Source of the DNA: Somniosus microcephalus
Lineage: Eukaryota
NCBI GenBank assembly: GCA_052327205.1
Contig: CM126205.1
Location: forward strand, 322,276,001-322,340,000
DNA length: 64,000 bases
Direction of reading: 5' to 3'
A model generated the notes under the pieces. It saw nothing but the letters and a program-made list of their open reading frames with translations. It did no database searches and was not told the DNA's origin. The position numbers and the translations under genes were made by a program. Shown here piece by piece: positions 12,326 through 40,800 of this stretch (position 1 is the first letter of the stretch; each line of letters starts with the position of its first letter).

Positions 12326-14414
12326 AAACAAGGCAGGAAGATTCCCATTGGTTAATTTTACGATTTTGCATGAAATAACACTAATACCAACCAGGAGAAA
12401 TCTCCTCCCTTCTCTCTCATTAACGGGAATGGTAGCATAGTGATTATGTTACTGGACGAGTAATCCAGAGGCCTGGACTAATGATCCGGAAACACAAGTT
12501 CAAATCCCACCGCGACAGCTGAGGAATTTAAATTCAATTAAATAAATCTGGAATAAAAAGCTAGCATCAGTAATGGTGACCATGAAACTACCGGATTGTC
12601 GTAAAAACCCAACTGGTTCACTGATGTCCTTTAGGGAAGGAAATCTACCGTCCTTACCCGGTCTGGCCTATATGTGACTCCAGACCCACAGTAGTGTGGT
12701 TAACCCTTAACTGCCCCTCTGAAATGGCCTAGCAAGCCACTGAGTTGTAACAAACTGCTACAAGAAATAATAAGAATAAGAATAAAACCGGATGGACCAC
12801 TCGGCACCGGCTTCGGACATGACAAAGGCACACCCAGCCCAGTCAACCCTGCAAAGTCCTCCTCATGAACACCTGGGGGCTTGTGCCAAAATTGGGAGAG
12901 CTGTCCCACAGACTAGTCAAGCAACAGCCTGACATAGTCATACTCACAGAATCATACCTTTCAGCCAATGTCCCAAACTCCTCCACCACCATCCCTGGGT
13001 ATGTCCTGTCACATCGGCAGGACAGACCCACCAGGGGTGGTGGCACAGTGGTATACAGTCGGGAGGGAGTGGCCCTGGGTGTCCTCAACATTGACTCCAG
13101 ACCCCATGAAGTCTCATGGCATCAGATCAAACATGGGCAAGGAAACCTCCTGCTGATTACCACCTACTGCCCTCCCTCAGCTGATGAATCAGTACTCCTC
13201 CATGTTGAACACCACTTGGAAGAAGCACTGAGAGTAGCAAGGGCACAGAATGTACTCTGGGTGGGGGACTTCAATGTCCATCACCAAGGGTGGCTCGGTT
13301 GCACCACTACTGACTGAGCTGGCTGAGTCCTGAAGGACATAGCTGCCAAACTGGGCCTGCGACAGGTAGTGAGAGAACGCGAGGGAAAAACCTACTTGAC
13401 CTCGTCCTCACCAATCTACCTGCTGCAGATACATCTGTCCATGACAGTGTTGGTAGCAGTGACTACCGCACAGTCCTTGTGAATATGAAGTCCTGTCTTC
13501 ACACTGAGGACACCCTCCATCGTGTTGTGTGACACTGCCACTGTGCTAAATGGGATAGATTCAGAACAGATCTAGCGGCTCAAAACTGGGCATCCATGAG
13601 GTGCTGTGGGCCATCAGCAGCAGCAGAATTGTATTCCACCACAATCTGTAACCTCATGGCCCGGCATATCCTTCACTCTAACATTAACATCAAGCCAGGG
13701 GACCAACCCGGGTTCAATAAGGAGTGTAGAAGAGCTATCAAGCGGCACTTACTCACCAATGCTCAGTTTGCTTTTCGCCAGGACCACTCAGCTCCAGACC
13801 TCATTACAGCCTTGGTCCAAACATGGACAAAAGAGCTGAATTCCAGAGGTGAGGTGAGAGTGACTGCCCTTGACATCAAGGCAGCATTTGACCGAGTGTG
13901 GCATCAAAGAGTCTAGTAAAACTGAAGTCAACGGGAATCGGGGGGAAAACTCTCCATTGGCTGGAGTCATACCTAGCACAAAGGAAGATGGTTGTGGTTG
14001 TTGGAGGCCAATCATCTCAGCCCCATGACATCGCTGCATGAGTTTCTCAGGGCAGTGCCCTAGGCCCAACCATCTTCAGCTGCTTCATCAATGACCTTCC
14101 CTTCATCATAAGGTCAGAAGTGGGGATGTTCGCTGATGATTGCACAGTGTTCAGTTTTATTCGCAACTCCTCAGATAATGAAGCAATCCATGCCCACATG
14201 CAGCAAGACCTGGACGACATTCAGGCTTGGGCTGATAAGTGTCAGGCAATGACTATCTCCAACAAGAGAGTATCTAACCACCGCCCCTTGACATTCAACG
14301 GCATTACCATCGCCGAATCCTCTAACGTCAATATTCTGGGGGTCACCATTGTTCAGAAACTTAATGGGACCAGCCACACAAATACTGTGGCTACAAGTAC
14401 AGGTCAGAGACTGG

Positions 14415-15237
14415 GGGCTGGATTTTCATTGAGGAGGCGTGTAGGAGGCGGGACTGCAACTTTCAGGGTTGTAGTCCTGCCTCCATCGAGTTGTAGCCAA
14501 CCCACGCGATTTTCACTTGATTGACCTTGTTGAGCCCGCCCAGCGGGCTCAGCAGGCCAATTAAGGGCCACCCAGCAACAGGTGACGTCACAGATTGACG
14601 TTTCATCTGTCAAAAGCTTTTGACAGATGAAATATCAGCGTTTGAGAGCTGCTTGAAGCTGTCAAACACTGATAATCTGTACTCCAAGTTAATTCCTTCC
14701 TCTCAGGCTGATTTAGAGATCTCTCCAGAACAGAAAGCTGAATGCTGCAATCGCAGCCATTCTGCTTTCTGTGCCGGTGAGATGAGGGACTCCCGAGACC
14801 TGAAGGAAGGAAGGCTGTAAAGGTAAGTAAATATAAGTACAACTTCTTTAAACACTTTACACACACCAAACATACTTACCTCTGCACTCATGCACCCATC
14901 ACTCACCTGAACACCGGACATCTCGAACCCTCCAAGTCCTTCAGCCCGACGGCCCGCCTCGCTAACTTGGCGTGGTTTGGATCCGTCGGGCAGCCCACAC
15001 TTCAAGAATAAAAATAGGGATTAGGCTAAAAACTGCCTGTTAACAGGCAGTTAATTGGCACTGGTCCCCTTCCCGCCTCGGGGAGGCGGCTCCCAGCACA
15101 GGTCAGGTATCCGCCTCCTTTGAAACTGGCATGGAGGCGGGTTGGGGGCGGGATGGGTTCGTGCCCCCCGATTTTGAGATTTTAACCCCCCCACACGCCT
15201 CCAATCCCGCCTCCACGGCCCAATGAAAATCCTGCCC
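14415..15237 (+). mobile_element. Non-autonomous Harbinger-type element, 823 bp
   Basis: TIR GGGC(T/A)GGATTTTCATTG resembling the copy 2 TIR; 3-bp TSD TGG (14412-14414 / 15238-15240); interrupts LINE ORF2 cleanly. Confidence 0.9.
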
Positions 15238-15940
15238 TGGGTATTATGTGGCGAGTGTTTCACCTCCTGACTCCCCAAAGCCTTTCCACCATCTACAAGG
15301 CACAACTTAGGTGTGTGATAGAATACTCTCCACTTGCTTGGATGAGTGCAGCTCCAACAACACTCAAGAAGTTCGACACCATATAGGACGAAGCAGCCCG
15401 CTTGATTGGCACCCCATCCACCACCTTAAACATTCACTCCCTCCACCACCAGCGCACCGTGGCTGTAGTGTGTGCCATCTACAAGATGCACTGCAGCAAA
15501 TCGCCAAGGCTTCTTCAGCAGCACCACCCAAACCTGCCTCTACCACCTAGAAGGACAAGGGCAGCAGGTGCATGGGAACACTATCACCTCCAAGTTCTCC
15601 TCCAAGTCACACACCATCCTGACTTGGAAATATATCTGGTGTTAAATCCGTGAATTTTGATGTATGGTGTCCTTCAATAAATCGACAGAGACTGCAGAGG
15701 AACAATCAACAGGTGTTTACTGGATGAGGGTTACTCTAAAAACTAAAGTACAGATCCCTACTCAAGGTTTATATACAGGTGTGGTCACTGCCGGTACTAC
15801 AGTATACAGGAGTTGTAAAAAGTAGTTCTCCCCTTAAAGGTACATACACTACAATTCCTCCCCTTTTAGATTAACAGTACCATAATATTCATTTAACAAT
15901 TAACACTTTTAACATGCAACATTAACTGCAAATAGTCCAT

Positions 15941-18856
15941 TTATAAATTCAGTCTTTGGGGCGGCTTCCTGATCCTTTCTGGATAGCGCCTTTCCTGAGT
16001 GTCTTGCTCTTGGTGCGGAGGCGATTCTGGCCCCCTGTCGTCGGTTGGTTCATCAGATTCCGATGCTACTGTTTCTGGGGTAGATGCTACCTGTATGTCG
16101 GGTTCATCACCAGGTACGCGAGACCTGGGGTTGCCTCGTTCCTGTGACTCTAGGATCTGGTCAGCATGGCGTCTCACAATGTTCTCCCCAACGTCCACTG
16201 TGTACATTAGTGGCCACTGCCGTGTGCATATCGTTCCTGGCTGCCATTTCTCTGTTCGGTAGTCGCGGGCCAAGACTGGTTGCTCTACATTGAAGCTCTT
16301 TGTCGGCTTCTCATTGATGTGCTGGAATTGCTTATTCTCAACATTTCTTCGTACATTTGGTCTGAGCAAATTCAGACGAGATCTCAACCTTCGGTTAAAG
16401 AACATCATGGCCGGGGTCTGGTTGGTAACTGCATGTGTCGCATTTCTGTAGGCTAACAGGACATTGTCCACCTTATGCTGCAGTAGAATGTCGTCATCGC
16501 ACATGGCCCTTACTGCCTTTTTAAAGGTTTGTACGAACCTCTCAGCCAATCCATTTGTGGCTGGATGATATGGGGCGGATGTGTAATGCCTTACCTCATT
16601 CCTTCTCATAAATTTCCGAAACTCTTCGGACACAAACTGTGGTCCACTATCAGAGCAAATCTGCTCTGGCAAGCTGTTCCTGGCAAATATGGTCCGTAGG
16701 ACTGCAATTGTTTTCTCCGTGGTGGTGGAGGACATTTTGATCACCTCAGGCCATTTCGAGTGCGCATCCACGGCTATTAAGAACATTGAGTCCATGAATG
16801 GACCAGCAAAATCAATGTGCACCCTTAGCCATGGAGAGGAGGGCCACTCCCATGGGTGTAGAGGGGCATGTGGTGGTGCATTTTGGACCTTCTGGCATCC
16901 TGAGCAGTTCTTTGTCAGGTCCTCGATTTGCTGATCGATCCCGGGCCATCACACATAAGCCCTAGCAAGGCTTTTCATTTTCACCCCTCCCAGATGGCCT
17001 TCGTGAAGCTCATTGAGCACTCTCTCCCTTAACTTGGGTGGAATTACCACTCGGGATCCACACATCAAGGTCCCCTGGCATACTGACAGCTGTTCTCTTC
17101 TGGATGAGAATGCTGGCAACAATGAGTCGCCATGTGTTGGCCATCCCTTCACCGTCAAATCATATACCCGAGACAGTGTCGGGTCATTTCGGGTCTCCTC
17201 TATATCCGCGTTAGTTACTGGCAAGCGTTCAATTATAGTCGAATAAAATATTTCGACAGGGTCCACTGCTGGTGCTTCCTCCGCAGTAGGCAGTGGCAGG
17301 CGTGATAGCCCATCAGTGTTTCCATGCTGTTTCGTGCCCTTATACTCTATTTCATATTGGTTCGCCCGTAGAAAAAGGGACCATCTTTGTAGCCATTGCG
17401 CAGTCATCACCGGAACGCCCTTCTTTGGATTAAAGATGGAGACAAGTGGTTGGTGGTCAGTCAGCAAGGTGAACTTCTGCCCGTGCAGATAGTGGTTGAA
17501 CATTTTTACTCCCCACACTAGGCTGAGGGCCTCCCTGTCAATCTGGGCGTAGTTACGCTCGGCTGAGGTTAGTGACCGAGACGCAAAGGCTACTGGCCAA
17601 GCCATCCGGGAATTTGTGTGACAGCACCGCCCCAATACCATAGGGTGATGCATCACACGCCAACCGAATTGGTAGTGCTGGGTTGAAATGAGCCAACACC
17701 TCTTTTGATGTGATCAATTCTTTGCACTTCTGGAAAGCTCGTTTACATTCGTAATTCCACTTCCATGGTACCCCCGTTTGCAGTAGGGTGTTCAGTGGGT
17801 GTAGTACTGTAGAGAAATTCGGCAAGAACTTATGGTAGTAGTTCACCAGCCCGAGGAACGACATCAGTTGTGACACATTTTCCGGTACTGGAGCCTTGAC
17901 TACTGCCTCAATCTTTTCAGGCGACTTATGTAACCCCTCTTCATCAATAACATGGCCACAATACGAGATCTGCTTCTGGAAACACTCGCATTTGTGGCGA
18001 TTAGCTCGGAGCCCATATTCCTTCAATCTAGTGAGCACCTGCTCCAGGTTGGCGAGGTGATCACTGTCATTTTCGCCCGTGACCAGGATGTCGTCCAAAT
18101 AACACTGGGTCCCTGGAATCCCTTGCAGGACTTGATCCATTGCCCTTTGCCAAATAGCCGGAGCTGATGCTACCCTGAACACCAGCCGGTTGTATTGGTA
18201 GAGACCTTTGTGAGTGTTGATCGTGAGGTACTGTTTCGAGGCTTCTTCTACCTCCATTTGCAGGTACGCCTGGGCCAGATCAATCTTAGTGAAGCGTTTT
18301 CCTCCAGATAGCGAGGCGAAAATATCTTCAATCCGCGGAAGCGGATATTGTACCGTGTGAAGGACTGGGTTCACTGTCACCTTAAAGTCCCCACAGATGC
18401 GAACCTTCTTTGGTTCCCCAGGCGTATTACTCAACGACCTCTTCATTATAGGAACGATGGGTGTAGCCCACTCGTTCCAGTCCACTTTGGACAGTACTCC
18501 TGAACGTTCCAACTCTTCCAGCTCTGCTTCGACGGCTGGGCGGATCGCATAAGGTACCGGTCTGGCCATAAAAAACTTTGGGCTTGCATTTTCCTCTATT
18601 TTTTGATCGTCGCTGTTATGCCTTTTAGTGTTCCGAGTCCCTCCTGGAACACTTCTTGTGCATCAGTTAGCGTTTTTGACAGTCGTCCAGGTGTGACGTC
18701 GTCATCCTTTTTGGCATCTACCGTCAGTGCTTGTATGGAATGCCAATCTAACTGTATCTTCCGGATCCATTCACGTCCTAGTAGTGGTGGTCCTCCATCT
18801 GGCAATACATATAGGTCCATTTTTGGTGTTTCCTTGCCGTGGTATATCACGTGCAC
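15941..18856 (-). pseudogene. Gypsy pol (RT, RNase H, integrase) in four broken ORFs
   Basis: RICGDFK, YPLPRIED, YLDD, CDASPYGIGAVL, HEGHLG..C..C, HIDFAGP, SDSGPQF, HPATNGLAERFVQTFK; frameshifts and a TGA at 16949-16951. Confidence 0.93.
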
Positions 18857-18858
18857 CC

Positions 18859-19854
18859 TTATTTTTCCTTTGGGTAGACTTTTTGCCCCGTGTACGTCTT
18901 CAAGACAATCTCTGTATCTCTCAAGGGTATATGTGAGAATAGCCGCTTGTAGTCCCTTCGGTTTATGACTGTTAGGGCTGATCCTGTGTCCAATTCCATT
19001 TTCACTTGGACTCCGTCTATCTTGAGCGTGACCCAGTTAGTTTGGTGATCCTCCATTTTGATTACATTATGTAGTTTCAGACAACCCAGCTCCTTGCTTC
19101 CGGAGTCTGTATCACTTTTCTGTTCGTCTGAACTACTCTCCGTCACCTTATGTACCTTTTTGCACATCTCCTGTGGAGATTTCTTGCTGCTGGTTTTCTT
19201 TCCCGACCTACAGACACTTGCTATGTGTCCTACTTTTCCACACTGTCTGCACACTTGGTCCTTGAACCAACAATCCTTCTGGTCGTGTGTTGTTCTGCCG
19301 CAGCGATAACACTTCACTGCTCCATATGACATTTTATTTGTGCCATATTCTTGCGGTCTCCGTTGTATCTCTGCAGCGCCCCGTGCGGCTGCTTCGTGTG
19401 ATACTGCCATGCTGAAAGCCTTGTCCAGCGTAAGATCCTTTTCTGATAGAAGCCGTTTCTGGGTTCCTTCACTTTGAAGCCCACACACAAACTTGTCCCT
19501 TAACGTATCTGCTAGTCCTGTTCCAAACTGGCAGTGTTTCGATAGCTTGCGCAGTTCCGTTAAATACTCAGCATTACTTTCGTCTTTATGCTGGTTCCTT
19601 TTGTGGAACTTAAATCTTTCTGCTATCAGCAGCGGTGTGGTGTTTAAGTGGTCCTGTAGGATTGCCGCTATGCTTTCAAAATCCTTTTCCACTGGCTTCT
19701 CTGGGGTTACTCGGTTTCGCAGTAAGCCGTACGTTTTTGCACCCATGGAATTCAACAATACCAGTGCTTTCCTGGCATCTGGCACTTCATTCGCCTTGCA
19801 GTACACTTCTATGCGTTCTATATATGTCGCCCAATCTTCGACTTCATTCGGCAT
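18859..19854 (-). pseudogene. Gypsy gag and start of protease
   Basis: Two CCHC knuckles (CYRCGRTTHDQKDC, CRQCGKVGHIASVC) and LDTGS protease motif; frame breaks before RT. Confidence 0.9.
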
Positions 19855-21289
19855 CCCTGGGTGTGGTTAGACTGGCTAAAAATGGCGTCTCCCGTGCTCT
19901 CCCTTCTTCTCCGCTGGCTCAAAATGGCGTCTCCCGCGCTACCTTTCTTCCCCCGCGGACGCTGCTCAGCCCTTGAACACCGGCCGCGCTCTGCGCGTTT
20001 TCCTGCGCGCCTCTATCGTTGACGCCGCTCTGTCTTCAACCCCGGCTGCGCCCTGTGCGCTTTACCCTCTCTCTTACCCCGTCGACGCTGCTCGGCCTTT
20101 TTCTGTGCCGTCGGTCGGCTCCAGCCGCCGCCGTCCGGGAAGGGTCTGCGCCGTACCTGCTGCCAGCCCGCTGCGCTGGATCGTCGCGACTGGAGAACCA
20201 AGCCCAGCTGTCCACAGCCTCCTCTACGATGTTCAAGTCCTCTCCGGATGGTCGACGCCCGCACTGGTGGAATCGGCCTTCTTCAGCAGAGTTGCAGGTA
20301 GGTTTGAATCGACTCGTCGCCAATGTTAAATCCGTGAATTTTGATGTATGGTGTCCTTCAATAAATCGACAGAGACTGCAGAGGAACAATCAACAGGTGT
20401 TTACTGGATGAGGGTTACTCTAAAAACTCAAGTACAGATCCCTACTCAAGGTTTATATACAGGTGTGGTCACTGCCGGTGCTACAGTATACAGGAGCTGT
20501 AAAAAGTAGTTCTCCCCTTAAAGGTACATACACTACATCTGTGTTCCTTCATCGTCGCTGGGTCAAAATCCTGGAACTCCCTCCCTAACAGCACTGTGGG
20601 AGCACCTTCACCACACGGACTGCTGCGGTTCAAGATGGCAGCTCACCACCACCTTCTCAAGGGCAACTAGGGATGGGCAATAAATGCCGGCCTTGTCAGT
20701 GATGCCCACATCCCAGGAATTAATTTTTTTAAAATCTCAGGTCATCCTATTGGAAAGGGATGGGTTGTTGATCCTAAATATTCCTGTGTTTGGAAAACAA
20801 GGGATGCCTCCCATTGTATTGTGCCTCATTTCCTCTCCAACATCTCAAAATGCTTCTCGCACAATGAATTACGTTGAAGAGCAGTGACTGTTGTTCGGTT
20901 GGCAAACCTGTCAGCTATTAGGCACACGGCAAGATCCCACAAACAGCAATGAGATGATGAACGCAGCGAGTGGTGAGGACCTGGAACTCGCTGCCGACAG
21001 AAGTGGTGGAAGCGGAGACACTCAATGTTTTCAAGGGGAGACTGGACAGGCACTTGAGGGAAATAAACTTGCAGGGCTACGGGGATAGAGCGGGGGAATG
21101 GGACTGGCTGGATTGCTCTACAGAGAGCCGGCATGGACTCGATGGGCCGAATGGCCTCCTTCTGTGCCGTTATGACTCTATGAATGACTGGTTAATCTGT
21201 TATTGTTGACGTCAGTTGAGGGAGGAATATTGGCCAGGACAGCTGGAGAACTCCCTTCTCTTCTTGGTATAGTGTTGTCTTTAACGTAG

Positions 21290-22620: not shown

Positions 22621-23033
22621 GGGAAAAAAAATTACAAAATTCTGAAAATTTGCGTCCGTTTTAGTTCAAGCACGTGGCGCCAGCGAGGGTGCTGACATTT
22701 GAATGGGCTGTTGTATGACATTACCTCTGGATGTAACCCCCGCCACCCCTTGTGAGCCGCACGTCCTTCTGTTCAAGTGGCGAGCTCGGATTCTTCTACT
22801 ATTTAAATAAGACCAAAAGAAAATGTCTTCTCTTTTGTGCTTTTAGATAAGCACTTGAAACGCCATAGCATACAAGGCTACGGACCAAGTGCTGGAAAAT
22901 GGGATTAGAATAGACAGGGCTTGATGGCCGGCGTGGACACGATGGGCCGAAGGGCCTCTTTCTGTGCTGTATAACTATGATGACTCTATTGTCCTCACTT
23001 CCTGTGAATCTGCTAACTCTTGTTGAGATCCAT

Positions 23034-23840
23034 TTCCACAGGCGCTAACTCTAGTTGGGGTACCGTTCCACAGGCGCTAACTCTAGTTGGGGTACAGTTC
23101 CACAGGCGCTAACTCTAGTTGGGGTACAGTTCCACAGGCGCTAACTCTAGTTGGGGTACAGTTCCACAGTCGCTAAATCTTGTTGGGGTACAGTTCCACA
23201 GTCGTTAACTCTAGTTGGGGTACAGTTCCACAGTCACTAAATCTTGTTGGGGTACAGTTCCACAGTCGCTAACTCTAGTTGGGGTACAGTTTCACAGTCG
23301 TTAACTCTAGTTGGGGTATAGTTCCACAGTCGCGAACTCTAGTTGGGGTGCAGTTCCACAGTCGCTAACTCTAGTTGGGGTGCAGTTCCACAGTCGCTAA
23401 CTCTAGTTGGGGTACAGTTCCACAGTCGTTAACTCTAGTTGGGGTACAGTTCCACAGTCGCGAACTCTAGTTGGGGTACAGTTCCACAGTCGCGAACTCT
23501 AGTTGGGGTACAGTTCCACAGTCGCTAACTCTAGTTGGGGTACAGTTCCATAGGCACTAACTCTAGTTGGGGTATAGTTCCACAGTCGCTAACTCTAGTT
23601 GGGGTACAGTTCCACAGTCGCTAACTCTAGTTGGGGTACAGTTCCACAGTCGCTAACTCTAGTTGGGGTACAGTTCCACAGTCGTTAACTCTAGTTGGGG
23701 TATAGTTCCACAGTCGCGAACTCTAGTTGGGGTACAGTTCCACAGTCGCGAACTCTAGTTGGGGTACAGTTCCACAGGCGCTAACTCTAGTTGGGGTACA
23801 GTTCCACAGTCGCTAAACTGTTGTTGGGGTACAGTGCCAC
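23034..23840. repeat. 32-bp minisatellite, about 25 copies
   Basis: Unit ttccacagtcgctaactctagttggggtacag, head-to-tail. Confidence 0.97.
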
Positions 23841-24669
23841 AAATGCTGACTCTCTGCCTCCACTCTCCATCCCGTTCCCGGTTCAGACAGGCCGGATTTG
23901 TTTGTGTTGGGAAGGTGGCTGGCGGAGGTGGGGGTGGGGGGGTGGGGGGGAGATGTGGCTGAGGGGTGAGGGGAGGCTGGTGCCAAGAGGTTGAGCTTCA
24001 CTTCATTCAGTTGCTAAGCACGCCATGCAGTGTGGTAACCCAGCCGTGCAGGAAGGTCCCAGATTGGATCCCAGGCCTGAGTTAGCTCACCTCGCTCAGA
24101 GGGGAGAGGGGAAGGGAGCGGGGGTGAGGGGGGAGTATGGGGGCGGGCAATTTTCCTCCGCGTTCCTTCACCTTAGTTACTTTTGCCACAGCTTTCACGA
24201 TTAACTTGCCCAGATCCTGAGAGCTCGGAGTAGTATTTACACGATGAAATAATAAACGGATAACATTTCTGGCGAGGTAAAGAGAGAGTTTCTAAGCAGA
24301 AAGGTTTCAATTACATGTGTGGCCTGCAGCGACCTTGTGGGTGATTGATTCAAGGACCAGCTGGCTGCTCGGAGGCCACATTAAGAACAGTTCATGTAGC
24401 ACATCCTGCTCATTCCCCCTGTCCAACTGATTGTTCTCGCTGATTGCCCATCTTATTTGTTTTGCCCATTGAAACATCGTTGTGATTGGGGAGAGGAAAA
24501 AAAATGCTAAATCACTGACCTGACTTAACTTCTTACTCTCCGAGTCGACACTAGGGTAACATTCAAACACAAGCACTCAGTTGCCGCAGAGTCCACTAAA
24601 TAAGACCTTTACTTACATATGTCCTCCTGGTTCTTATCAAAATGAGGAGTTTAAAAATAAATTAAGGTC

Positions 24670-25305: not shown

Positions 25306-25306
25306 T

Positions 25307-25947
25307 AGAACATAAGAAATAGAAGCAGGAGTCGGCCATTCGGCCCCTCGAGCCTGCTCCGCCATTCAATGAGATCATGGCTGATCTTCTACCTTATCTC
25401 CACTTTCCTGCACTATCCCCATATCCATTGATTGATTTTCTTAATATCCAAAAATCTATCGGTCTCTGTCTTGAATATACTCAACGACTGAGCCTCCACA
25501 GCCCTCTGGGGTAGAGAATTCCAAAGATTCACCACCCTCAGAGTGAAGATATTTCTCCTCATCTCAGTCCTAAATGGCCGACCCCTTATTCTGAGACTGT
25601 GACCCCTGGTTCTAGACTCCCCTAGCCAGGGGAAACATCCTCCCTGCATCTACCCTGTCAAGCCCTGTAAGAATTTTGTATGTTTCAATTAGATCACCTC
25701 TCATTCTTCTAAACTCTAGAGAATATAGGCCTAGTCTACTCCATCTCTCCTCATAGGGCAATCCCCTCATCCCAGGAACCAGTCTGGTGAACCTTCATTG
25801 CATGTCCTCTATGGCAAGTATATCCTTCCTTAGGTAAGGAGACCAAAACTATACACAATACTCCAGGTGTGGTCTCACCAGGGCCCCATATAATTGCAGT
25901 AAGACGACTTTACTCTTATACTCAAATCCTCTTGTAATAAAGGCCAA
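25307..25947 (-). mobile_element. CR1 LINE 3' fragment
   Basis: ESRTRGHSLRIRGRPFRTEMRRN..LWNSLP on the - strand with 3' UTR. Confidence 0.92.
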
Positions 25948-26070: not shown

Positions 26071-26530
26071 TTCAGCCGTGACTCAGTGGGCAGCACTCTC
26101 GCCTCTGAGCCAGAAGGTTGTGGGTTCAAGTCCCACTCCAGGGACTTCGCCACATAATCTAGGCTGACCCTCCCAGTGCAGTGCTGAGGGAGCGCTGCAC
26201 TGTCGGAGGTGCCGTCATTCGGATGAGACATTGAACCTAAGCCTCGTCTGCCTTCTCGGGTGGACGTAAAAGATCCCATGGCACTATTATTGGAAGAGCA
26301 GGGGGTGTTCTTCCAGGTCTCCGAATTCAACATTCACTCCTCAACTAATATCACTGAAACAGATTATCTGGTCGTTATCACATTGCTGTTTGTGGGAGCT
26401 TGCTGTGCGCAAATTGGCTTCCTACATTTCAACAGTGACTACACTCCAAAAGTGCTTTGGGGCTGTAAAGCGCTTTGAGATGTCCAGAGGCTGTGAAAGG
26501 CGTGAAATAAATTCAAGGTCTTTCTTCCTT
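26071..26530 (+). mobile_element. Deu-SINE (SacSINE1-like), full length
   Basis: tRNA head (gactcagtggg, gggttcaagtccc), Deu body, L2-like tail ..aaggcg..tctttc. Confidence 0.85.
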
Positions 26531-29562: not shown

Positions 29563-29637
29563 GCTGCTACCGAACTTGAATCTTTGGGGGGTGGCGGGGG
29601 GGGCGCGGGGGGCGGTAAAGCTCCCCGCAGAGACTAC

Positions 29638-30456
29638 GGGCTGGATTTTGATACTGGAGGCGTGTAGGAGGCGCGACTACAACTTTTGGGGTTGTAGTCC
29701 CGCCTCCATCGAGTTGTGGCCAACCCACGTGATTTTCACTTGATTGACCTTGTTGACCCCGCCCAGCGGGTTCAGCAGGCCAATTAAGGGCCACCCGGCA
29801 ACAGGTGACGTCACAGATTGACATTTCATCTGTCAAGAGCTTTTGACAGATGAAATATCAACGTTTGACAGCTCTTTGAAGCTGTCAAACACTGACAATC
29901 TGTACTCCAAGTTAATTCCTTCCTCTCAGGATGATTTAGAGACCTCTCCAGAACAGAAAGCTGAATGCTGCAACTTTTGACAGCTCGCGGCCATTCTGCT
30001 TTCTGTGCCGGTGAGATGAGGGACTCCCGAGACCTGAAGGAAGGAAGGCTGTAAAGGTAAGTAAAACTTCTTTAAACACTTTACACACACCAAACACACT
30101 TACCTTTGCACTCATGCACCCATCACTCACCTGAACACCGGACATCTCGAACCCTCCAAGCCCTTCAGCCCGACGGCCCGCCTCGCTAACTTGGCGTGGT
30201 TTGGAGCCGTCGGGAATCCCAGACTTCAGAAATAAAAATAGTGATTAGGCTAAAAACTGCCTGTTAACTACCTGTTAACAGGCAGTTAATTGGCACTAAT
30301 CCCCTTCCCGCCTCAGGGAGGCGGGTCCCAGCACAGGTCAGGTATCCGCCTCCTGGCATGGGGGCGGGATGGGTTCGTGCCCCCCCCCCGATTTCGAGAT
30401 TTTAACCCCCCACACGCCTCCAATCCCGCCTCCACGGCCCAATGAAAATCCTGCCC
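29638..30456 (+). mobile_element. Second copy of the 823-bp non-autonomous Harbinger-type element
   Basis: Colinear and highly similar to 14415-15237; ends GGGCTGGATTTT / AAAATCCTGCCC; no clean TSD. Confidence 0.9.
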
Positions 30457-30940: not shown

Positions 30941-31224
30941 TTCCTTCGCTAAGGAAGGGGAGAGCAAGCCAGAGTTAACACTCCAGTAAACCCGTGCCAT
31001 AAAATGTCTGTCGGTGTAGATGTGACAGTTAGGTATCACCGTGACGCCTTCTGTGAAGGAATAGCCAGCCAGTCACTATCAGTCAGGTTCACACATGGAA
31101 GGGCCAATTGGGTGATTTACCAGAGGCCTCCCAGCACCGTGGATCTGTATCCCAGCAGGAATCCACCCCTTCAGGAGAGGAGGAATGAGAGAGGGGTGGT
31201 AATGAAAAGAAAAAAGAAAAAAAA

Positions 31225-31907: not shown

Positions 31908-32183
31908 TAATAAAGTGTTGAGATTTGAACCTTGAGACTGGTCTAGTTGGGTCATCCATCCCATATTTGGCGTTCGTTCACTCTTGCAAAGGATGGAACT
32001 GCATCTACGTTGGTGGAACTATGGGGGGGGTGCGCGAAACATGGGCCCCCGATATTTGCGGGGGAGCGCGGGGCCAACCCGGCATGTCGGGGGACAGTGA
32101 GGCCCTGCCCCATCTGAACGGCAGGGCCTTATTATCTTTTTGTAAGAGCTGCCTCCCGCCCGACTACCCTGCCAAATGGACAG

Positions 32184-32412
32184 TGACGTAAGAAAACTAC
32201 TAGGCACTTGGTCTGAGTATTAAACAAGACTTTAATCAATTGTTTTTCAACATAGAGATCTAGTTGTGTCCTTTACTAGTTCCTGTTAAAGAATGTCCTG
32301 CGCAAGCTGGGCCCATGCCCGAGTATTTATACTCTCCCTGGACAGCGCCACCAGCAGGCCGCCCAGTATCACTTCATAAGTCATTTCCATGTGAATGACA
32401 AGATTCATGTCA
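32184..32412 (-). mobile_element. Solo LTR, 229 bp
   Basis: TG..CA ends; near-TSD GACAG/GGCAG; reverse complement of 31407-31621. Confidence 0.82.
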
Positions 32413-33290
32413 GGCAGCCTGGCTGCCGGGCGGGAAGGAGGAAGGGAGCACTAGCGGCAAAGCTGCAGCAGGGGACCCGTGCCGACACTCACCCGCCTGT
32501 CGGGAGGAGCAGGGGTGGAGGGTGGTGTGGTTGGGGGAGAAGGAGTTGGGTTAAAATCGAGGCTGCGGCATCAGAGAGTTGCCGGGCCATTTGCAGGGGA
32601 CCTGGCTGGCTCCACTGCTTCAGAATGGGAATGAACTCTTCCTATCTGTCAAAAGTTTAATTAAATCTCGCTATCGCATTTCAGACTTCAAGACGCACTA
32701 AATAGGCCTGATGGCAGTGGGGTAACCATTGTCAGCTTTTGGTTTCACTCCCTCCAGCAAGAGTCTGATCACACAGGTGAGTGACTCACCTCCTGACTCC
32801 AAAGCCTTTCCACTTGCTAAACCTGTATCGAACCTTAGTCAGACCACACTTGGAGTGCTATGTGCAGTCCTGGTCGCCATATTATAAAAAGGATATAGAG
32901 GCACTGGAGAGGGTGCAGAGATGATTTACAAGGATGGTATCAGAAATGCGAGGGTATACATATCAGGAGATGATGAACTGGCTGGGTCTCTTTTCTCTTG
33001 AAAAGAGAAGGCTGAGGGGTGACCTAATAGAGGTCTTTAAAATTATGAAAACATTTTGATAGAGTGGATACAGAGAGAATGTTTCCACTTGTGCGGAAGG
33101 ATTAAAACTAGAGGCCATTGATATAAGATAGTCACCAAGAAATCCAATAGGGAATTCAGAAGAAACTTCTTTATCCAGAGAGTGGTGAGAATGTGGAACT
33201 CGCTACCACAGGGAGTGGTTGAAGCGAATATTATGGATGCAATTAAGGGGAGGCCAGACAAGCATACGAGGGAAAAGGGAATAGAGGGTT

Positions 33291-35792
33291 ATGCTGATAG
33301 ATTTAGATGAGGAAAGACGGGAGGAGGCTCAAATGGAGCATAAAACGAGGGAAATTAGAGAAGCGTGCAATAAGAGCACAGCTGTCATCATAGGTGACTT
33401 TAACTTACATATAGATTGGACTAGCCTAATCAGTAAAAATAATGAGGAGGAGGAATTCCTTGAGTGTTTGAGGGATGGTTATCTGGATCAATATGTCGAG
33501 GAACCAACTCGGGAACAGGCTATATTGGACTGGGTACTGTGCAATGAGAAGGGACTAATCAGTAATCTTGTTGTACGGGGACCCTTGGGTCAGAGCGATC
33601 ATAACATGATCGATTTCTCACTCGAAATGGAGAGCGAAGAAATTGACTCAGAGACTAAGGTCCTGAATTTAAACAAGGGGAATTATGATGCCATGAGACG
33701 GGAACTGAGTAGGTCTGATTGGACAACGTTCCTGGGAGGACTGGAGGTAGATAAACAATGGCAAACATTTAAAGATAGAATGACAAAATTGCAAAAATTG
33801 TTTATACCAATCTGGCATAAAAGGAAATCTAAAAAGGTGACTCAACCGTGGATAACAGGGGAAATTAGAGACAGCATAAAATCCAAAGATAGGGCGTATA
33901 AAATAGCCAAAAAAAGCGCCAGAGCGGAAGATTGGGAACAGTTTAAGATAGAGCAAAGGAGGGCAAAGGGCATAATCAAGAGGGGCAAAATAGCTTACGA
34001 AAACAAGCTGGCGGAAAATATAAAAACTAACTCCAAAAGCTTTTATAAGTATATCAAAAGGAAAAGACTGGTGAAAACCAAAGTTGGTCCATTGCAGTCA
34101 GATACGGGGGAATATATAATGGGAAATAAGGAAATGGCAGATCAACTAAATGCATACTTTGGGTCAGTCTTTACGAAGGAAGACACAAAAAACCTCCCTG
34201 GGATATCGGGAAAAATAGGGACATTGGCAAAGGAGGAACTGACGCAAATCAATATCTCTAAGGATATGGTGTTAAGGAAGCTAAAGGGATTGAAGGTGGA
34301 CAAATCCCCAGGGCCTGATAACATGCATCCTAGGGTACTGAAGGAGGTGGCCCTAGAGATAGCGGATGCACTAAGGATGATTTTTCAGAATTCATTAGAC
34401 TCGGGAACAGTGCCGATGGATTGGAGGGTAGCTAACGTTACCCCACTATTCAAAAAGGGGGGTAGGGAAAAAGCAGGTAATTACAGACCTGTAAGCCTTA
34501 CATCAGTTGTGGGCAAAATGCTGGAGTCCATCATTAAGGATGAAATAGCGGAGCACTTAGCAAATGGGGACAGGATAGGACAGAGTCAACATGGATTTAC
34601 AAAGGGTAAATCGTGCTTGACTAATCTATTGGAATTTTTTGAGGGAGTAACTGGTAGAATAGATGGGGGAGAGCCAGTAGATGTGGTGTACCTGGACTTC
34701 CAAAAGGCCTTCGATAAGGTCCCACATAAAAGATTAGCATGGAAAATTGAGGCTCATGGGATAAAGGGGAAAGTTTTGGCGTGGATAGGGAACTGGCTGT
34801 CAGATAGAAAACAGAGAGTTGGAATAAACGGCTCATTTTCTGAATGGCAGGCAGTAACAAGTGGGGTACCACAGGGATCTGTCCTGGGCCCCCAGCTGTT
34901 CACAATTTACATTAATGACCTGGATCAGGGAGTCGGATGCAGCATTTCCAAATTTGCAGACGACACTAAACTAGGAGGGGGGGTGGGCTCAGAGGAAGAG
35001 ACCAGGAAGCTCCAGAGCGATTTGGACAGACTGGGCGATTGGGCGGATAAATGGCAGATGCACTATAATGTGGACAAGTGCGAAGTTATCCACCTTGGGT
35101 GCAGGAACGGGAGGGCAAATTATTATTTAAATGGCAATAGATTGGGAGAGGGGGAAGTACAGAGAGACCTGGGTGTTCTTGTACACCAGTCACTGAAGGC
35201 GAGCATGCAGGTGCAACAGGCGGTCAAGAAGGCAAACGGTATGCTGGCCTTCATAGCAAAAGGGTTAGAATACAGGAACAGGGATACCTTGCTGCAGCTG
35301 TACAGGGCACTGGTGAGACCACACCTCGAGTACTGTGTACAGTTTTGGTCGCCGCATCTGAGGAAGGATGTTCTTGCCATGGAGGGGGTGCAGCGGCGAT
35401 TCACCAGGCTGATACCAGGAATGGCGGGAATGACCTATGAGGAGAGACTATGTAGTTTAGGGATGTACACACTGGAGTTTAGAAGATTGAGAGGGGACCT
35501 CATAGAAGTGTATAAAATTCTGACAGGTCTAGACAGACTGGATGCAGAAGGAATGTTTCCCTTGGCGGGTGAGAACAGAACTAGAGGACATAATTTGAGG
35601 ATAAGGGCTAAACCATTTAGGACAGAGATGAGGGGGAATTTCTTCACTCAGAGAGTGGTGAACCTGTGGAACTCATTGCCACAGAGGGCAGTGTACGCCA
35701 GCTCATTAAATATATTTAAGAGGGAATTAGATATATTTCTACGGGCAAAAGGGGTTAAGGGTTACGGAGAGAAGGCGGGGACGGGATACTGA
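33291..35792 (+). CDS. CR1 ORF2 (partial endonuclease + reverse transcriptase), 833-aa ORF with a chimeric start
   Basis: [44 protein letters not shown]; first about 18 codons come from the older CR1 3' UTR. Confidence 0.75.
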   Translation: MLIDLDEERREEAQMEHKTREIREACNKSTAVIIGDFNLHIDWTSLISKNNEEEEFLECLRDGYLDQYVEEPTREQAILDWVLCNEKGLISNLVVRGPLGQSDHNMIDFSLEMESEEIDSETKVLNLNKGNYDAMRRELSRSDWTTFLGGLEVDKQWQTFKDRMTKLQKLFIPIWHKRKSKKVTQPWITGEIRDSIKSKDRAYKIAKKSARAEDWEQFKIEQRRAKGIIKRGKIAYENKLAENIKTNSKSFYKYIKRKRLVKTKVGPLQSDTGEYIMGNKEMADQLNAYFGSVFTKEDTKNLPGISGKIGTLAKEELTQINISKDMVLRKLKGLKVDKSPGPDNMHPRVLKEVALEIADALRMIFQNSLDSGTVPMDWRVANVTPLFKKGGREKAGNYRPVSLTSVVGKMLESIIKDEIAEHLANGDRIGQSQHGFTKGKSCLTNLLEFFEGVTGRIDGGEPVDVVYLDFQKAFDKVPHKRLAWKIEAHGIKGKVLAWIGNWLSDRKQRVGINGSFSEWQAVTSGVPQGSVLGPQLFTIYINDLDQGVGCSISKFADDTKLGGGVGSEEETRKLQSDLDRLGDWADKWQMHYNVDKCEVIHLGCRNGRANYYLNGNRLGEGEVQRDLGVLVHQSLKASMQVQQAVKKANGMLAFIAKGLEYRNRDTLLQLYRALVRPHLEYCVQFWSPHLRKDVLAMEGVQRRFTRLIPGMAGMTYEERLCSLGMYTLEFRRLRGDLIEVYKILTGLDRLDAEGMFPLAGENRTRGHNLRIRAKPFRTEMRGNFFTQRVVNLWNSLPQRAVYASSLNIFKRELDIFLRAKGVKGYGEKAGTGY

Positions 35793-35884
35793 ATTAAAAG
35801 ATCAGCCATGATCTCATCGAATGGCGGAGCAGGCACGAAGGGCCGAATGGCCTACTCCTGCTCCTATCTTCTATGTATCTATGT
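33345..35884 (+). mobile_element. Young 5'-truncated CR1 LINE with uninterrupted ORF2
   Basis: TSD ATAAA (33340-33344 / 35885-35889); tail tctatgtatctatg; ORF open to 35792. Confidence 0.95.
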
Positions 35885-35947
35885 ATAAATGCTGGCATGG
35901 ACAGGTTGGGCCGAATGGCCTGTTTCTATGCTGTATATCCGATGTAA

Positions 35948-36500
35948 TCCACCATTTACAAGGCACAAGTCGGGAGTGTGATGGAATACTCTGCACTTGC
36001 CTGGATGAGTGCAGCTCCAACAACACTCAAGAAGCTCGACACCATCCAGGACAATGCAGCCCGTTTGATTGGCACCCCATCCACCACTTTAAACATTCAC
36101 TCCCTCCACCACCAGCGCACCGTGGCTGCAGTGTGTACCATCTACAAGATGCACTGCAGCAACTCGCCAAGGCTTCTTCGGCAGCACCTCCTAAACCTGC
36201 GGCCTCTACCACCAAGAAGGACAAGGGCAGCAGGCGCATGGGAACATCACCACCTCCAAGTTCCCCTCCAAGTCACACACTATCCCGACTTGGAAATATT
36301 TCGGCCGTTCCTTCATCGTAACTGGGACAAAGTCCTGGAACTCCCTCCCTAACAGCACTATGGGAGGACCTTCACCACACGGACTGCAGCGGTTCAAGAA
36401 GGCGGCTCACCACCACCTTCTCAAGGGCAATTAGGGATGGGCAATAAATGCTGGCATTGCCAGCGACGCTCACATCCCGAGAATGAATAATAAAAAAAAC
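35948..36500 (+). mobile_element. 3' fragment of the 12425-20730 LINE family (continues from about 32775-32813)
   Basis: MEYSALAWMSAAPTTLKKLDTIQ..HSLHHQR; tail gggcaataaatgctgg..gaatgaataa. Confidence 0.88.
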
Positions 36501-36639
36501 ATTGCCAGTCAGCCGTGACGCATATTTGAACCTGACAGAGTGGGATTGTTGATTTAACAATGACATTCCGATTCATGGCTCCCATCCCGGGCCGACTCTA
36601 CTTTTTGATGTGTTTTTTCTCATATTGGAAACCACTGAA

Positions 36640-37225
36640 ACAACAAACTTGCATTTTTATAGCGCCTTTCACAACCTCAGAATGCCCCACAGAGCTTTAC
36701 AGCCAATGAAGTATTCTTGAAGCATAGTCACTGTAATGTTGGGAAACGCGACAGCCAATTTATGCACAGCAAGCTCCCATAAACAGCAGTGATCAGATAA
36801 TCTGATTTTAGTGGTGTTGGTTGAGGGATACAGGAAACTTTCTGGTATCCGGCACGGACGGGACCGAGCTGGTGCCGGTCTATCAACAATGCCGGAGAAT
36901 CGAGCGCTATAGTTAAAAGATACAGAGCTCAGCGCTCCGTCTAAAGCAACAAACCCTGTTGCTAACAGCTTCAAAACAATCAGCACAGCTTGCAAGCGTC
37001 TCTGTAGCTTAGCAACAGCTTCAGTTAGACGCTTGCACAGCCAGAAATGAGTAAAAAAAAAAGTAACTAAAAATAAAAAAAGTTATCTGAACCGACTCCT
37101 GAATTTTGCCGGTTAACCGACATTTCCGGTTATTTAGTGGCCAGTTAATCGAAAGTTTCCTGTACATATTAGCCCGGCCACCTGGGGAGAACTCCACTGC
37201 CCTTCTTCCAAATAGTGCCGTGGGG
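36640..37225 (-). mobile_element. Deu-SINE fragment interrupted by a MITE
   Basis: SINE body continues across the insertion (ttgagggata | catattagcc). Confidence 0.78.
36831..37162. mobile_element. Tc1/mariner (pogo/Tigger-like) MITE, 332 bp
   Basis: TIR CAGGAAACTTTC / GAAAGTTTCCTG; TA TSD (36829-36830 / 37163-37164). Confidence 0.88.
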
Positions 37226-38225
37226 CGCAACCATTTCTGATTTTCACTTCAAGCTTCTACCTTCAACGACAGGGATTTTTGTTTAAAAATCCTTCTCAAC
37301 TCCTTGCGGCGATTTTCTCCCTTTCTCTGGCCTTTGCTGGGGTGTGGTTCCACGGGCAACATCCGCAATCCAATACGCAGCTTCTTCGTGCGGGAGCCCA
37401 GTGAGTGTCGGCGGGTCGTTTGATGGTAGAGGGTACGGCAGCGGAGCCCGGCCCGGCCGTGCCTTCGCCCGTCGCCCCTCTGCGTACCTCTCCGACTGGG
37501 CAGTGTTGCCCCAGCTACCAACCTGGCTGAAGTTGGCCAATTGGCAAACAGACCCAAGGTTAAACCTGGGACCTTGTGTTCCACGTGGCTTAGGCCGCTA
37601 ACGTCTTTAAGGAACTGAATGTTTTTACAACCGGTGCGTGTAGAGTTTTCCTTCCAGTTGACGTTGAGAAATTGGCTTTTTCCCTGATTGTTGAGGCTTT
37701 TCCTGCAGACGCTGTGTCATAGAGTCATAGAGCACAGAAAGAGGCCCTTCGGCCCATCGTGTCCGCACCTGCCATCAAGCCCTATCTATTCTAATCCCAT
37801 TTTCCAGCATTTGGTCCGTAGCCTTGTATGTAATGGCGTTTCAAGTGCTCATCTAAAAGCATAAAAGAGAAGTCATTTTCTTTTGGTCTTATTTAAATAG
37901 CTGTAGAAGAATCCGAGCTCGCCCCTTGAACAGAAGGATGTGCGGCTCACAAGACCCATTGTGTCGCAGGTTTATTGTGGAGGGGTGAGCCTGAGCAGGC
38001 CGTGCGACCGTTTGAGGCTGTAGGAGCAGGGTTCGGTCTGGGCCTCATCCCAAGGAAAGTAAGAAAGAACTTGCATTTATACAGCATCTTTCGCAACCTC
38101 ATGACGTCCCAAAGCGCTTTACAGCCAATGAAGTAATTTTTTGAAGTGTAGTCACTGTTGTAATGTAAGAAACACGGCAGTCAATTTGCACACAGCAAGC
38201 TCCTACAAACAGCAATGAGATAATA

Positions 38226-38520
38226 GAGTCATATAGTCATAGAGTTATACAGCACAGAAAGAGGCCCTTCGGCCCATCGTGTCCGCACCGGCCATCAAGT
38301 CCTGTCTATTCTAATCTTATTTTCCAGCACTTGGTCCGTAGCCTTGTATGCTATGGCGTTTCAAGTGCTCATCTAAATGCTTCTTGAATGTTGTGAGGGT
38401 TCCTGCCTCTACCACCCTTTCAGGCACTGAGTTCCAGATTCCAACCACCCTCTGGGTGAAAAAGTTTTTCCTCCAATCCCCTCTAAACCTCCTGCCCCTT
38501 ACCTTGAAACTATGCCCCCT
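38226..38520 (-). mobile_element. CR1 LINE 3' tail
   Basis: Reverse-strand FFTQRVVGIWNS and 3' UTR. Confidence 0.8.
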
Positions 38521-38914
38521 CTACTCTTCTCCTTTCCTGATGGATATTTTCCCATAAATGCCCACAGGGGTGCTTTAAGTCTGGTAACAATCATTGGACG
38601 CACATAATCCTTCCTGGCTGCTTTGCGCGCCCTGTCATGTCCCAGTTTAGTTTTAATGGCTCCAGTCTATTAATGGAATCTTCATGTATCCCCGTATCCT
38701 GCGGAGAGCTGCAGCAGACGGCCCACTTCACGACGCTCCGCCCGATATTGTGGAACCACTTCTTCTACATGAAGTGTGTCTGCAGTCCGCCGGGGCGCTC
38801 ACCGCCCTCTGGGTGGCCTTTCTTATTCTGTAGAGCAATTCTGTCTGAAAGGGACGGTGGAAGCAGGATCGATGGTAACGTTGAAAAGGTAGTCGGGCCT
38901 TCCAGCACTGACCA

Positions 38915-39490
38915 CGCTTCAAAAAGGACCGCATTGCCTCTGCAAGATCCTGCAAATCCATTGGCAGGATAGGCGCACCAACGTCAGTGTTCTTGCTCAG
39001 GCCAACATCCCCAGCATCGAAGCTTTGACCACGCTCAATCAGCTCCGATGGACGGGTCACATTGTCCGCATGCCCGATACAAGACTCCCAAAACAAGCGC
39101 TCTACTCGGAGCTCCGACACGGCAAGAGAGCCCCAGGTGGGCAAAGGAAACGCTTTAAGGACACCCTCAAAGCCTCCTTGAAAAAGTGTAACATCCCCAC
39201 CGACACCTGGGAATCCCTGGTCCAAGACCGCACAAAGTGGAGGAGAAGCATCTGGGAAGGCGCCGAACACCTCGAGTCTCTTCGCCGGGAGCAAGCGGAA
39301 GCCAAGCGCAGGCAGCGAAAGGAGCGCACGTCAACCCAAGCACCCCACCCACCTGCCCCTTCAACCACCGTCTGCCCCACCTGTGACAGAGACTGTAGGT
39401 CCCGCATTGGACTAATCAGTCACCTGAGAACTCATTTTTAATGTGGAAGCAAGTCATCCTCGGTTCCGAGGGACTGCCTAAGAAGAAGAT
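38915..39490 (+). mobile_element. RTE-clade LINE 3' fragment
   Basis: LRWTGHIVRMPDTRLPK..GGQRKRFKD and terminal CPTC..C..RIGLISHLRTH zinc finger; aagaagaaga tail. Confidence 0.9.
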
Positions 39491-40104
39491 TGGGTGTGAA
39501 GTGCTTAGAGACGTCCTGAGGTGGTGAAAGGCGCTATATACATGCAAGTCTTTCTTTCTTTCTAATGATGTATTCATCTTGAATATGAGAATTTAGAGGA
39601 GTTGTCTAGTATCAGCCAATACTGAATCACCATTTCAGTTTAGCAACTGGTTGGATCTAGCCTTGAGCTTTGGTTTGGTTCGGTGCTAAACTGCCATATT
39701 CCCAAGCGAGAGTGATTACCTGCGGGATAGGAGAAGGGTGATAACGGGTTTAAGAGAGGGCGCGGGGAATGAAAATCAATGAGTCCTTGCTGACTGAGGC
39801 TTGTCTTATACAATTTAATAATAGATTGTGTTTATGTCCCGAGTCTGTAGAGGGGCTGGTTCTCTTTCACTGTCAAACTTGAGACTAGATTAATTGACAG
39901 CAACGTGATAAAAAGCAGAAGCTAAGGCCACCGCACGAACCGAGGGCAACGATGACTTTACTCCTCACACCTCCCCGCTCCTTCCCCCCACCGCACAGGT
40001 TCTCCAATCCTGGGATTTGCAGGGATTGGGAATGTTCAAGTTCCATAAATCCCAGCTGACAAAAAAAAAAGAGATGAATAAATAAAAAGAATCTCCGGAG
40101 TTGA

Positions 40105-40800
40105 GGGAGCGGTAGTGTAGCGGTTATATTGCCGGACTAATGATCCTGACAAAGCAAGTTCAAATCCCACCACGTCACTTCGAGAATTTGAATTTTTTTT
40201 TTTTATAAATACCTGGAAATAAAAATCTTGTATCAGTAAAAGTGACCATGAAGTTGTTGGTCGAATTGTGGTTCACTAATGTCCTTTAGGGAAGGAAACC
40301 TGCCGTCCTTCCCCAATACGTGACTCCAGACCCACACCAACAGGGCTGAGTCTTAATTGTTCTCTGAAGTGGCCCAGTAAGTCACTCAGTTGTACCAAAT
40401 TGCTGCCAGCGGTTCGAGACGGCGGCTCACCACCTTCATCTTGGTTGGATCTAGTCTTGAGCTTTGGTTTGGTTCGGTGCTAAACTGCCATATTCCCAAG
40501 CGAGAGTGATTATCTGCGGGATAGGAGAAGGGTGATAACGGGTTTAAGAGAGGGCGCGGGGAATGAAAATCAATGAGGCCTTGCTGACCTTATACAATTT
40601 AATAGATTGTGTTTATGTCCCGAGTCTGTAGAGGGGCTGGTTCTCTTTTACTGTCAAACTTGAGACTAGATTAATTGACAGCAACGTGATAAAAAGCAGA
40701 CGCTAAGGCTCCACCACCACCTTCTCAAGGCAACTAGGGATGGACGATAAAATGCTGGCCTTGCCAGCGACGCCCACATCCCGAGGATGAATTTAAAAAA
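40105..40800 (+). mobile_element. tRNA-derived SINE sharing head and tail with the 12425-20730 LINE; tail split by a 270-bp local duplication
   Basis: A/B boxes (40113, 40158); body ggttcactaatgtcctttagggaaggaaa..gtgactccagacccac (recalled as Meta-domain-like); LINE tail at 40404-40437 and 40710-40800. Confidence 0.8.

Follow-up and report, generated by a model that had tools for sequence, protein, structure and literature searches.

A decayed LINE with a SINE-type head and body ahead of its endonuclease-reverse transcriptase frame, and a SINE that matches both of its ends

Organization of the LINE and of the related SINE

The window (the whole 64,000-nt stretch analysed) contains, at positions 12425-20735, a decayed copy of a retrotransposon family that is probably of shark origin, with all of the copy's own parts on the forward strand. 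From 5′ to 3′ it comprises an A/B-box head and a body of about 250 nt (together 12425-12763), a spacer of 95 nt and an endonuclease-reverse transcriptase (RT) ORF. The tRNA-like head (12425-12515) carries an A-box-like sequence at 12433 and a B-box-like sequence at 12498; the body (12516-12763) is common to the LINE and to a SINE located downstream, and the spacer (12764-12858) is found in the LINE only. The sequence-only reading had described head and body running straight into ORF2 without an ORF1, and this layout was confirmed, with the endonuclease starting at about 12859, 95 nt past the shared part. These 95 nt, all that separates the two, cannot accommodate an ORF1, and the canonical two-ORF CR1 layout of the HER1 type, with ORF1 upstream of ORF2, was not found. 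The absence of ORF1 is not unusual by itself, as single-ORF LINEs include RTE and some L2 elements.

ORF2 is decayed. Its first part (12859-14414), with endonuclease, linker and RT, is broken by stop codons and frameshifts and has lost about 230 codons internally near 13739, and Pfam recognised Exo_endo_phos (PF03372, E 8e-10) and, downstream, RVT_1 (PF00078, E 4e-5 and 4e-9). The C-terminal part follows at 15238-15639 and the 3′ end at 20538-20735, with an AATAAA at 20679 and a terminus of T7 and then A4 in this copy. A second, 5′-truncated copy of the same LINE lies on the forward strand at 35930-36500, ends in an A run and is 90-92% identical (322/352 over the C-terminal part); AATAAA is conserved in the tails of both copies. 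An AP-like endonuclease followed by RT, a conserved 3′ tail, an A-rich end and a 5′-truncated copy are the features of an APE-type LINE. No adjacent repeat of at least 6 nt that could represent a target-site duplication was found at the LINE or at the SINE, both of which are old copies.

The pieces of the LINE are separated by two later insertions. One, at 14415-15237, is non-coding, about 830 nt long, with terminal inverted repeats and TGG on both sides, and a second copy of it occupies 29628-30456. The other is a 4.9-kb LTR retrotransposon on the reverse strand (15640-20537), with LTRs identical at 211/214 positions and broken ORFs, in the order gag knuckle, protease, RT, RNase H and integrase. 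The insertions in both the LINE and the SINE were absent from the earlier description.

The motifs of the LINE look like those of the CR1/L2 group. Its RT is 25% identical to that of the other LINE in the window, assumed to be CR1 from its motifs, versus 34-40% to four near-full-length proteins. The closest full-length relatives are proteins of 960-980 residues with a short extension ahead of the endonuclease. The RT search for long relatives gave only 2 proteins and no intact close copy, and in Atlas searches only generic endonuclease or unnamed clusters matched.

The SINE, also on the forward strand, has its head and body at 40105-40409, which differ from the LINE head by three short deletions and a T12 run, and a tail (40410-40803) corresponding to the last 110 nt or so of the LINE. 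The heads align between 12426-12763 and 40106-40409 (E 1e-37) with 231/285 identical bases (81%), and the tails with 87/97 (90%). The SINE proposed earlier at 40105 thus has the related head and the LINE tail, but its tail is not continuous, being split by an insertion of about 270 nt (approximately 40442-40709) that is 94% like 39648-39928. The ACTGC microhomology invoked to explain the join did not hold: ACTGC is present at 12754 and 20619 in the LINE, but at the SINE join another 5-mer stands in its place, along with additional bases. This is the one SINE copy with this head in the window, where nhmmer found no third head.

A search with A-box and B-box patterns located the pair in the SINE head as well (40113/40158), and 7 pairings in the window (6 distinct B sites) versus 1.4 in shuffles. 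By these patterns the 5′ A and B boxes that define SINE2 elements are present. Counted from the apparent 5′ end, the A box lies at +9, the position expected of a working type-2 promoter, and the B boxes of both heads start with AAGTTC, the canonical form being GGTTC. ARAGORN detected 0 tRNA genes in either head and Rfam gave no tRNA match at E 10, although decay may mask homology. Folding of the heads was no better than in shuffles (z -0.9 and -0.4), and among the six folds of heads, body, junction and tails only the tail of the second LINE copy exceeded shuffles (z -2.3). When bacterial and archaeal genomes were scanned for stray host DNA, the head had 0 matches, and the only other result was one irrelevant match of 33 residues.

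The body was compared with known SINE domains. The first guess, a Deu domain as in SacSINE1, was discarded, as the two Deu motifs of AmnSINE1 (PMC7245038 supplement) match neither head; they match five other SINEs in the window, at 26209, 31754, 48465/49438, 58833 and 60241. The second, the V domain of HE1, was also rejected: the V motif (PMC6887750 supplement) is exact only at 55921, with a further match at 9072 with 3 mismatches. Meta and UCON3 gave 0 matches at 3 mismatches in a weak test with one 18-nt motif each. A literature search with a 12-nt motif of the body turned up no related paper.

Recurrence of the body-spacer-ORF2 join

Three endonuclease searches yielded 156 proteins, from which close homologs were defined as those at least 50% identical and reaching the start of the endonuclease (n = 8, counted as proteins, that is, gene models, and not as species). 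The spacer was matched by 7 of the 8 (0-1 of 300 shuffles). The body shared with the SINE was matched by three of them at 32-81 bits (0/300 shuffles) and weakly by a fourth (18 bits, 12/300 shuffles), with the N-termini of these gene models matching from 12621 onward; distant relatives (n = 62) scored at most 19 bits.

In two close homologs, P0008 and P0004, the alignment runs from 12724 past the junction and on into the endonuclease with no large gap. These two and the window are mutually 71-75% identical, so they are separate copies. The body matches of P0005 and P0016 contain a gap and could have arisen if the gene predictor spliced in a nearby SINE. P0001 departs from the spacer into host-gene sequence that is unrelated, and P0006, P0019 and P0055, which begin within the spacer, are uninformative. 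No contiguous alternative 5′ region or ORF1 was found in any of the 8, five of which extend far enough. Since P0004 and P0008 cross the same junction contiguously, the join of body and ORF2 is a feature of the family and not a chance adjacency. The junction is thus not unique to this locus, as it would be for a fortuitous neighbourhood, and independent gene models support, as far as the body is concerned, the earlier proposal that head and ORF2 move together. Because no homolog extends to the A and B boxes (the furthest match is at 12621), recurrence of the join is shown for the body only. Taken together, the sequences strongly suggest a multi-copy, single-ORF LINE family whose usual 5′ end is a SINE-type module.

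In the spacer, homologs have an AUG where the window has ATA (12782), out of frame with the endonuclease, and no in-frame AUG was found upstream of the endonuclease.

Transcription, T runs and the origin of the SINE

The reading that we favour, with a probability of about 0.5, is a single-ORF LINE family with a Pol III-type head and with the SINE as its deletion-type derivative. Of the two possibilities raised earlier, an autonomous Pol III-headed element or a SINE that captured an ORF2, the former is favoured. In the proposed cycle, the internal A and B boxes would recruit TFIIIC and RNA polymerase III, which would make a single RNA of about 3.5 kb kept free of T-run terminators. ORF2, of about 960 codons when intact, would be translated from a non-standard start (a non-AUG codon, reinitiation, or the out-of-frame AUG of the spacer followed by a -1 shift), and its protein would bind the conserved 3′ tail and insert a copy by target-primed reverse transcription. 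Since the promoter would be internal, every full-length copy would retain it. The SINE, consisting of head, body and tail without spacer and ORF2, would borrow the enzyme in trans. Autonomy of the LINE is the likely part of this proposal, and the direction from LINE to SINE is slightly favoured. Pol III transcription of the LINE is more tentative, at somewhat under even odds; what counts against it is that Pol III RNA, being uncapped, serves poorly as an mRNA.

The distribution of T runs bears on this point. The scarcity of T4 runs claimed earlier is real in number, with two T4 and not a single T5 across the 2573 nt that belong to the LINE itself, but it applies only when the inserts are removed and is within chance (expected 4.6, P 0.14). 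Shorter runs are depleted on the sense strand, with 12 TTT versus 27 expected (P 0.002) and 98 TT versus 124, and TTT is in excess elsewhere (39 versus 25 in the neighbouring LINE, 45 versus 34 in the LTR element). Under codon-aware nulls the TT/TTT depletion has P 0.02-0.05, for tests picked among 6 motifs after data inspection. Terminator-like words (T4+, TCTTT, TATTT; list from PMC8466645) number 2 versus 7.3 expected on the sense strand (P 0.02) and 15 versus 15.9 on the antisense strand.

The same autonomous family might be transcribed by Pol II, with a SINE-derived head recruited as 5′ UTR, boxes that are vestigial or act as TFIIIC sites, and an RNA capped and polyadenylated at the AATAAA of the tail. 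This is unlikely, although protein-coding RNAs require a cap, the AATAAA is kept in both tails, the B boxes read AAGTTC and not GGTTC, the tRNA fold is unrecognised and two T4 runs are present. LINEs also co-opt 5′ sequences, according to bioRxiv 2025.02.02.635956. A sense-specific TT/TTT depletion is not predicted by Pol II transcription, the A box lies at +9 as in a working type-2 promoter, and Pol III SINE RNAs can use AATAAA too (PMC8466645).

It is quite unlikely that the element is a non-autonomous chimera, formed by template switching from a pre-existing SINE onto a 5′-truncated LINE, immediately ahead of ORF2, and then multiplied in trans by a conventional ORF1-bearing LINE with its own 5′ UTR, with ORF2 as a passenger. 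Template switching does exchange SINE modules (PMC5499810, PMC7245038), and neither an in-frame start nor an intact copy was found. In addition, the head is more diverged than the tail between SINE and LINE (81% versus 90%; Fisher P 0.06), which is consistent with a separate history of the head and counts against the favoured reading. Nevertheless, another contiguous 5′ region or ORF1 was seen in 0/8 close homologs (five extending far enough), and for T runs to become depleted along the ORF, it would have had to stay behind the head for a long time. Chance adjacency, a one-off chimera of the U6/L1 type and a LINE inserting site-specifically into a SINE are very unlikely and largely refuted: SINEs and LINEs are densely packed in the genome and no clear target-site duplication frames the element, but two other copies are contiguous across the same junction. 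Site-specific insertion was discarded since it would leave the rest of the SINE behind the LINE, and neither LINE copy has such a remnant in its 3′ flank.

LINEs and SINEs are divided by polymerase (II versus III) and coding capacity. A LINE family with an entire SINE front end would blur this divide and allow a SINE to arise from it in a single step. What SINE bodies derive from and what they do has been stated as an open question (PMC5786205, PMC4824008), and two questions meet in this element: can a Pol III transcript code for the enzyme of its own retrotransposition, and can a SINE body be a translation leader? The boldest version, a self-mobilising SINE that is autonomous and Pol III-transcribed, with an ORF2 purged of T-run terminators, an uncapped RNA translated by a non-AUG or frameshift route, the body as translation leader and a SINE arising in one step by internal deletion, is doubtful; if true, it would give a SINE body a direct origin and function. 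If the family is driven by Pol II, or is already in Repbase, it adds only modestly to repeat biology.

Comparison with known systems

RTE-1_DAn, whose host is presumably Drosophila from its name, and its relatives are LINEs that resemble the present one. They have a tRNA-like sequence matching many SINE2 heads, but the accessible part of PMC5786205 gives neither the position nor the function of that sequence and describes no matching SINE with head, body and tail, and the host group is different. In the U6/L1 and Alu/L1 chimeras, small-RNA or SINE sequence also lies 5′ of a LINE; those are occasional single insertions (bioRxiv 2025.02.02.635956), whereas here one junction, immediately ahead of ORF2, recurs among diverged copies. 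RIME/ingi and NARTc/L1Tc share the relation of a short element made of the two ends of a long one, but they are without a tRNA-type head and are considered Pol II transcripts (as cited in PMC5786205).

Among sharks, SacSINE1 (Deu) is paired with L2-2_CM or a CR1-4_DR-like LINE, and HE1 (V) with HER1 (PMC5499810, PMC3747384). These pairs have in common with the present one a tRNA-type head, a body, a tail shared with a LINE and the same kind of host, but there only the tail is common to SINE and LINE, and Deu and V are absent from the head described here.

The bipartite LINE-derived SINEs (Bov-tA, AfroSINE, CoeSINE4 and SINE2-1_EBu), for which only RTE and Vingi have been found as contributors, are also similar in structure (Kojima 2018, PMC5786205; Kojima 2020, PMC7245038). 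As in them, the SINE at 40105 has the 5′ region and the 3′ tail of one LINE and resembles an internal deletion. Their tRNA head, however, is absent from the LINE and joins after the deletion, whereas here head and body are already carried by the ORF2-bearing element.

Anatomy of the LINE and its partner SINE

The LINE starts at about 12425, with an A-box-like motif at 12433 and a B-box-like motif at 12498, called with general patterns for these boxes. Since no tRNA was recognised by ARAGORN, Rfam or folding, the head is assigned a tRNA origin from the two boxes and where they lie. No tRNA genes were found across the window, which is repeat-dense animal DNA. Head and body extend to 12763; a spacer of 95 nt separates them from the endonuclease, which begins at about 12859 and is followed by RT pieces. 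A close homolog of this endonuclease, 82% identical across 50 residues, comes from Heterodontus francisci. The copy is dead: it has stop codons and frameshifts and, by comparison with a 962-residue relative, has lost about 230 codons. No target-site duplication was found. A second, 5'-truncated copy (35930-36500) is 90-92% identical.

Two inserts split the LINE. One is a non-coding element with terminal inverted repeats (14415-15237; internal palindrome 14601-14632), 89% identical to a copy at 29628-30456 and possibly a Harbinger-type MITE. The other is a minus-strand LTR retrotransposon (15640-20537) in which several ORFs are broken; its LTRs are identical at 211 of 214 positions, and it is far younger than the LINE hosting it.

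The SINE head from 40105 is related to the LINE head, and the alignment, with three short deletions in the SINE, continues to 12763/40409 (231/285 identities). Beyond the body, the SINE continues with the LINE's final ~110 nt (87/97 identical). The sequence-only reading had proposed an ACTGC microhomology at this join; the motif occurs at 12754 and 20619 and is absent from the SINE join, so this proposal is not confirmed. Nor did that reading mention the ~270-nt insert that interrupts the SINE tail. This segment is duplicated at 94% identity (39648-39928, 40442-40709, 40580-40709), with its source 800 nt upstream of the tail and CACCAC-like flanks, and looks like a local templated insertion. 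A weak, old match to the tail (E 0.04) was detected at 56902-56976 on the minus strand, with no head.

The body was tried as a Deu domain and as a V domain, and both were rejected, since the published motifs match other SINEs in the window instead: a SacSINE1-like Deu-domain SINE is present in several copies (26072, 31908, 48672, 49300, 58724, 60107), and the V motif lies at 55921-55938 (minus). Both types are reported from sharks in PMC3747384 and, together with the Heterodontus homolog of the endonuclease, point to a cartilaginous fish as host. One motif each for the Meta and UCON3 domains gave no match. The supplements of PMC5499810 align the tails of SacSINE1 and L2-2_CM, and the tail described here may be common to them.

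Other repeats in the window

Two tandem units of ~4.4 kb (338-4818, 5223-9553; 70-74% identical) each carry a Harbinger-type DDE_Tnp_4 transposase ORF (E 1e-38), together with long ORFs on the opposite strand that match nothing in Pfam. Another LINE family, commoner than the first, occurs at 33285-35883, 10112-10732, 25306-25947, 49625-51098 and 61557-62209, and its copy at 33285 retains an open endonuclease-RT frame of 835 codons. Overlapping stop-free frames of 550-760 codons at 51631-54078 (minus), without Pfam match, are probably a degenerate repeat array. Minisatellite arrays with units of ~64 nt and 56 nt lie at 23012-23853, 41004-41711 and 42945-44877; the 56-nt arrays sit within copies of a repeat also found at 11641-12326, directly upstream of the LINE.

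Recurrence of the junction between body and ORF2

Recurrence was assessed in predicted proteins; such models at times run through repeats. Searches with the endonuclease, three in all, yielded 156 proteins, 36 of them at ≥45% identity; eight combined ≥50% identity with reaching the endonuclease start. Their upstream residues were scored against the window DNA under a frameshift-tolerant neutral-divergence model, with 300 shuffles each. The spacer was matched by seven of these eight close homologs (gene models counted, not species). The SINE-shared body was matched by P0005 (42 bits), P0008 (32 bits) and P0016 (81 bits), none of the 300 shuffles doing as well, and all three also match the SINE at 40105. 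The body match of P0004 was weak (18 bits; 12/300 shuffles) because only 13 of its residues reach the body. As controls, 62 distant relatives scored ≤19 bits and 13 close matches missing the endonuclease start ≤17 bits.

The alignments of P0008 and P0004 run from 12724 over the junction and on through the spacer into endonuclease sequence, broken by small indels only, and these two and the window are 71-75% identical to one another. Against recurrence, the alignments of P0005 and P0016 are gapped, and the gaps may correspond to predicted introns; P0001 passes from the spacer into a host-gene domain, and three gene models begin inside the spacer. The LINE with a SINE-type head is real, and its key prediction, a recurring junction, passed a first test. 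Judged from these predicted proteins, the body-spacer-ORF2 join is a family structure. The A and B boxes, reached by none of the eight gene models, would also belong to this structure, as we infer from the two window copies.

Transcription, origin and comparison with known pairs

All T-run tests were post hoc and on a single decayed copy. The two T4 runs counted earlier are correct for the 2573 nt left with both inserts removed, but their scarcity is not significant (4.6 expected). Shorter runs are depleted on the sense strand (TT 98 vs 124 expected, TTT 12 vs 27; both P 0.002). In a neighbouring LINE whose T content is the same, TTT occurs 39 times (Fisher P 0.0002); it is also in excess in the LTR element. 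With the protein held fixed, P was 0.02-0.05 for TTT and 0.3-0.6 for T4. Terminator-like words numbered 2 vs 7.3 expected on the sense strand (P 0.02), with the antisense strand at expectation. This depletion favours Pol III as the putative polymerase of the LINE. The AATAAA in the tail of both LINE copies is compatible with either polymerase, according to PMC8466645.

Most likely, an internal type-2 promoter would drive a single RNA with the coding sequence of the enzyme and, at its end, the recognised tail; the SINE would arise when spacer and ORF2 are lost. We put the probability that the family is an autonomous Pol III retrotransposon at about 0.3. The weakest link of this autonomous model is the start of ORF2: at the position of 12782, three gene models (P0008, P0019, P0055) carry a Met whose frame is not that of the endonuclease; in the window, P0001 and P0008, the endonuclease frame extends upstream via an Arg-rich stretch without Met. 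This is also the best point of the alternative that a SINE template-switched onto a 5'-truncated LINE, the chimera then being amplified in trans by an ordinary LINE with ORF2 as a passenger. As to direction, judged from one SINE copy, the SINE and LINE heads are somewhat further apart than the tails (81% vs 90%, P 0.06), so that the LINE may instead have captured an older SINE head.

In the literature searched, which was largely open-access, no paper was found to describe a shark LINE that carries a SINE head. In the main text of Kojima 2018 (PMC5786205), a comparison of every Repbase SINE with LINEs finds that RTE and Vingi alone contributed 5' parts, the head of the derived SINEs being added after the deletion. 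The LINE and SINE described here work like such a bipartite pair. However, since the head here sits on the long element, they are not of the described bipartite kind.
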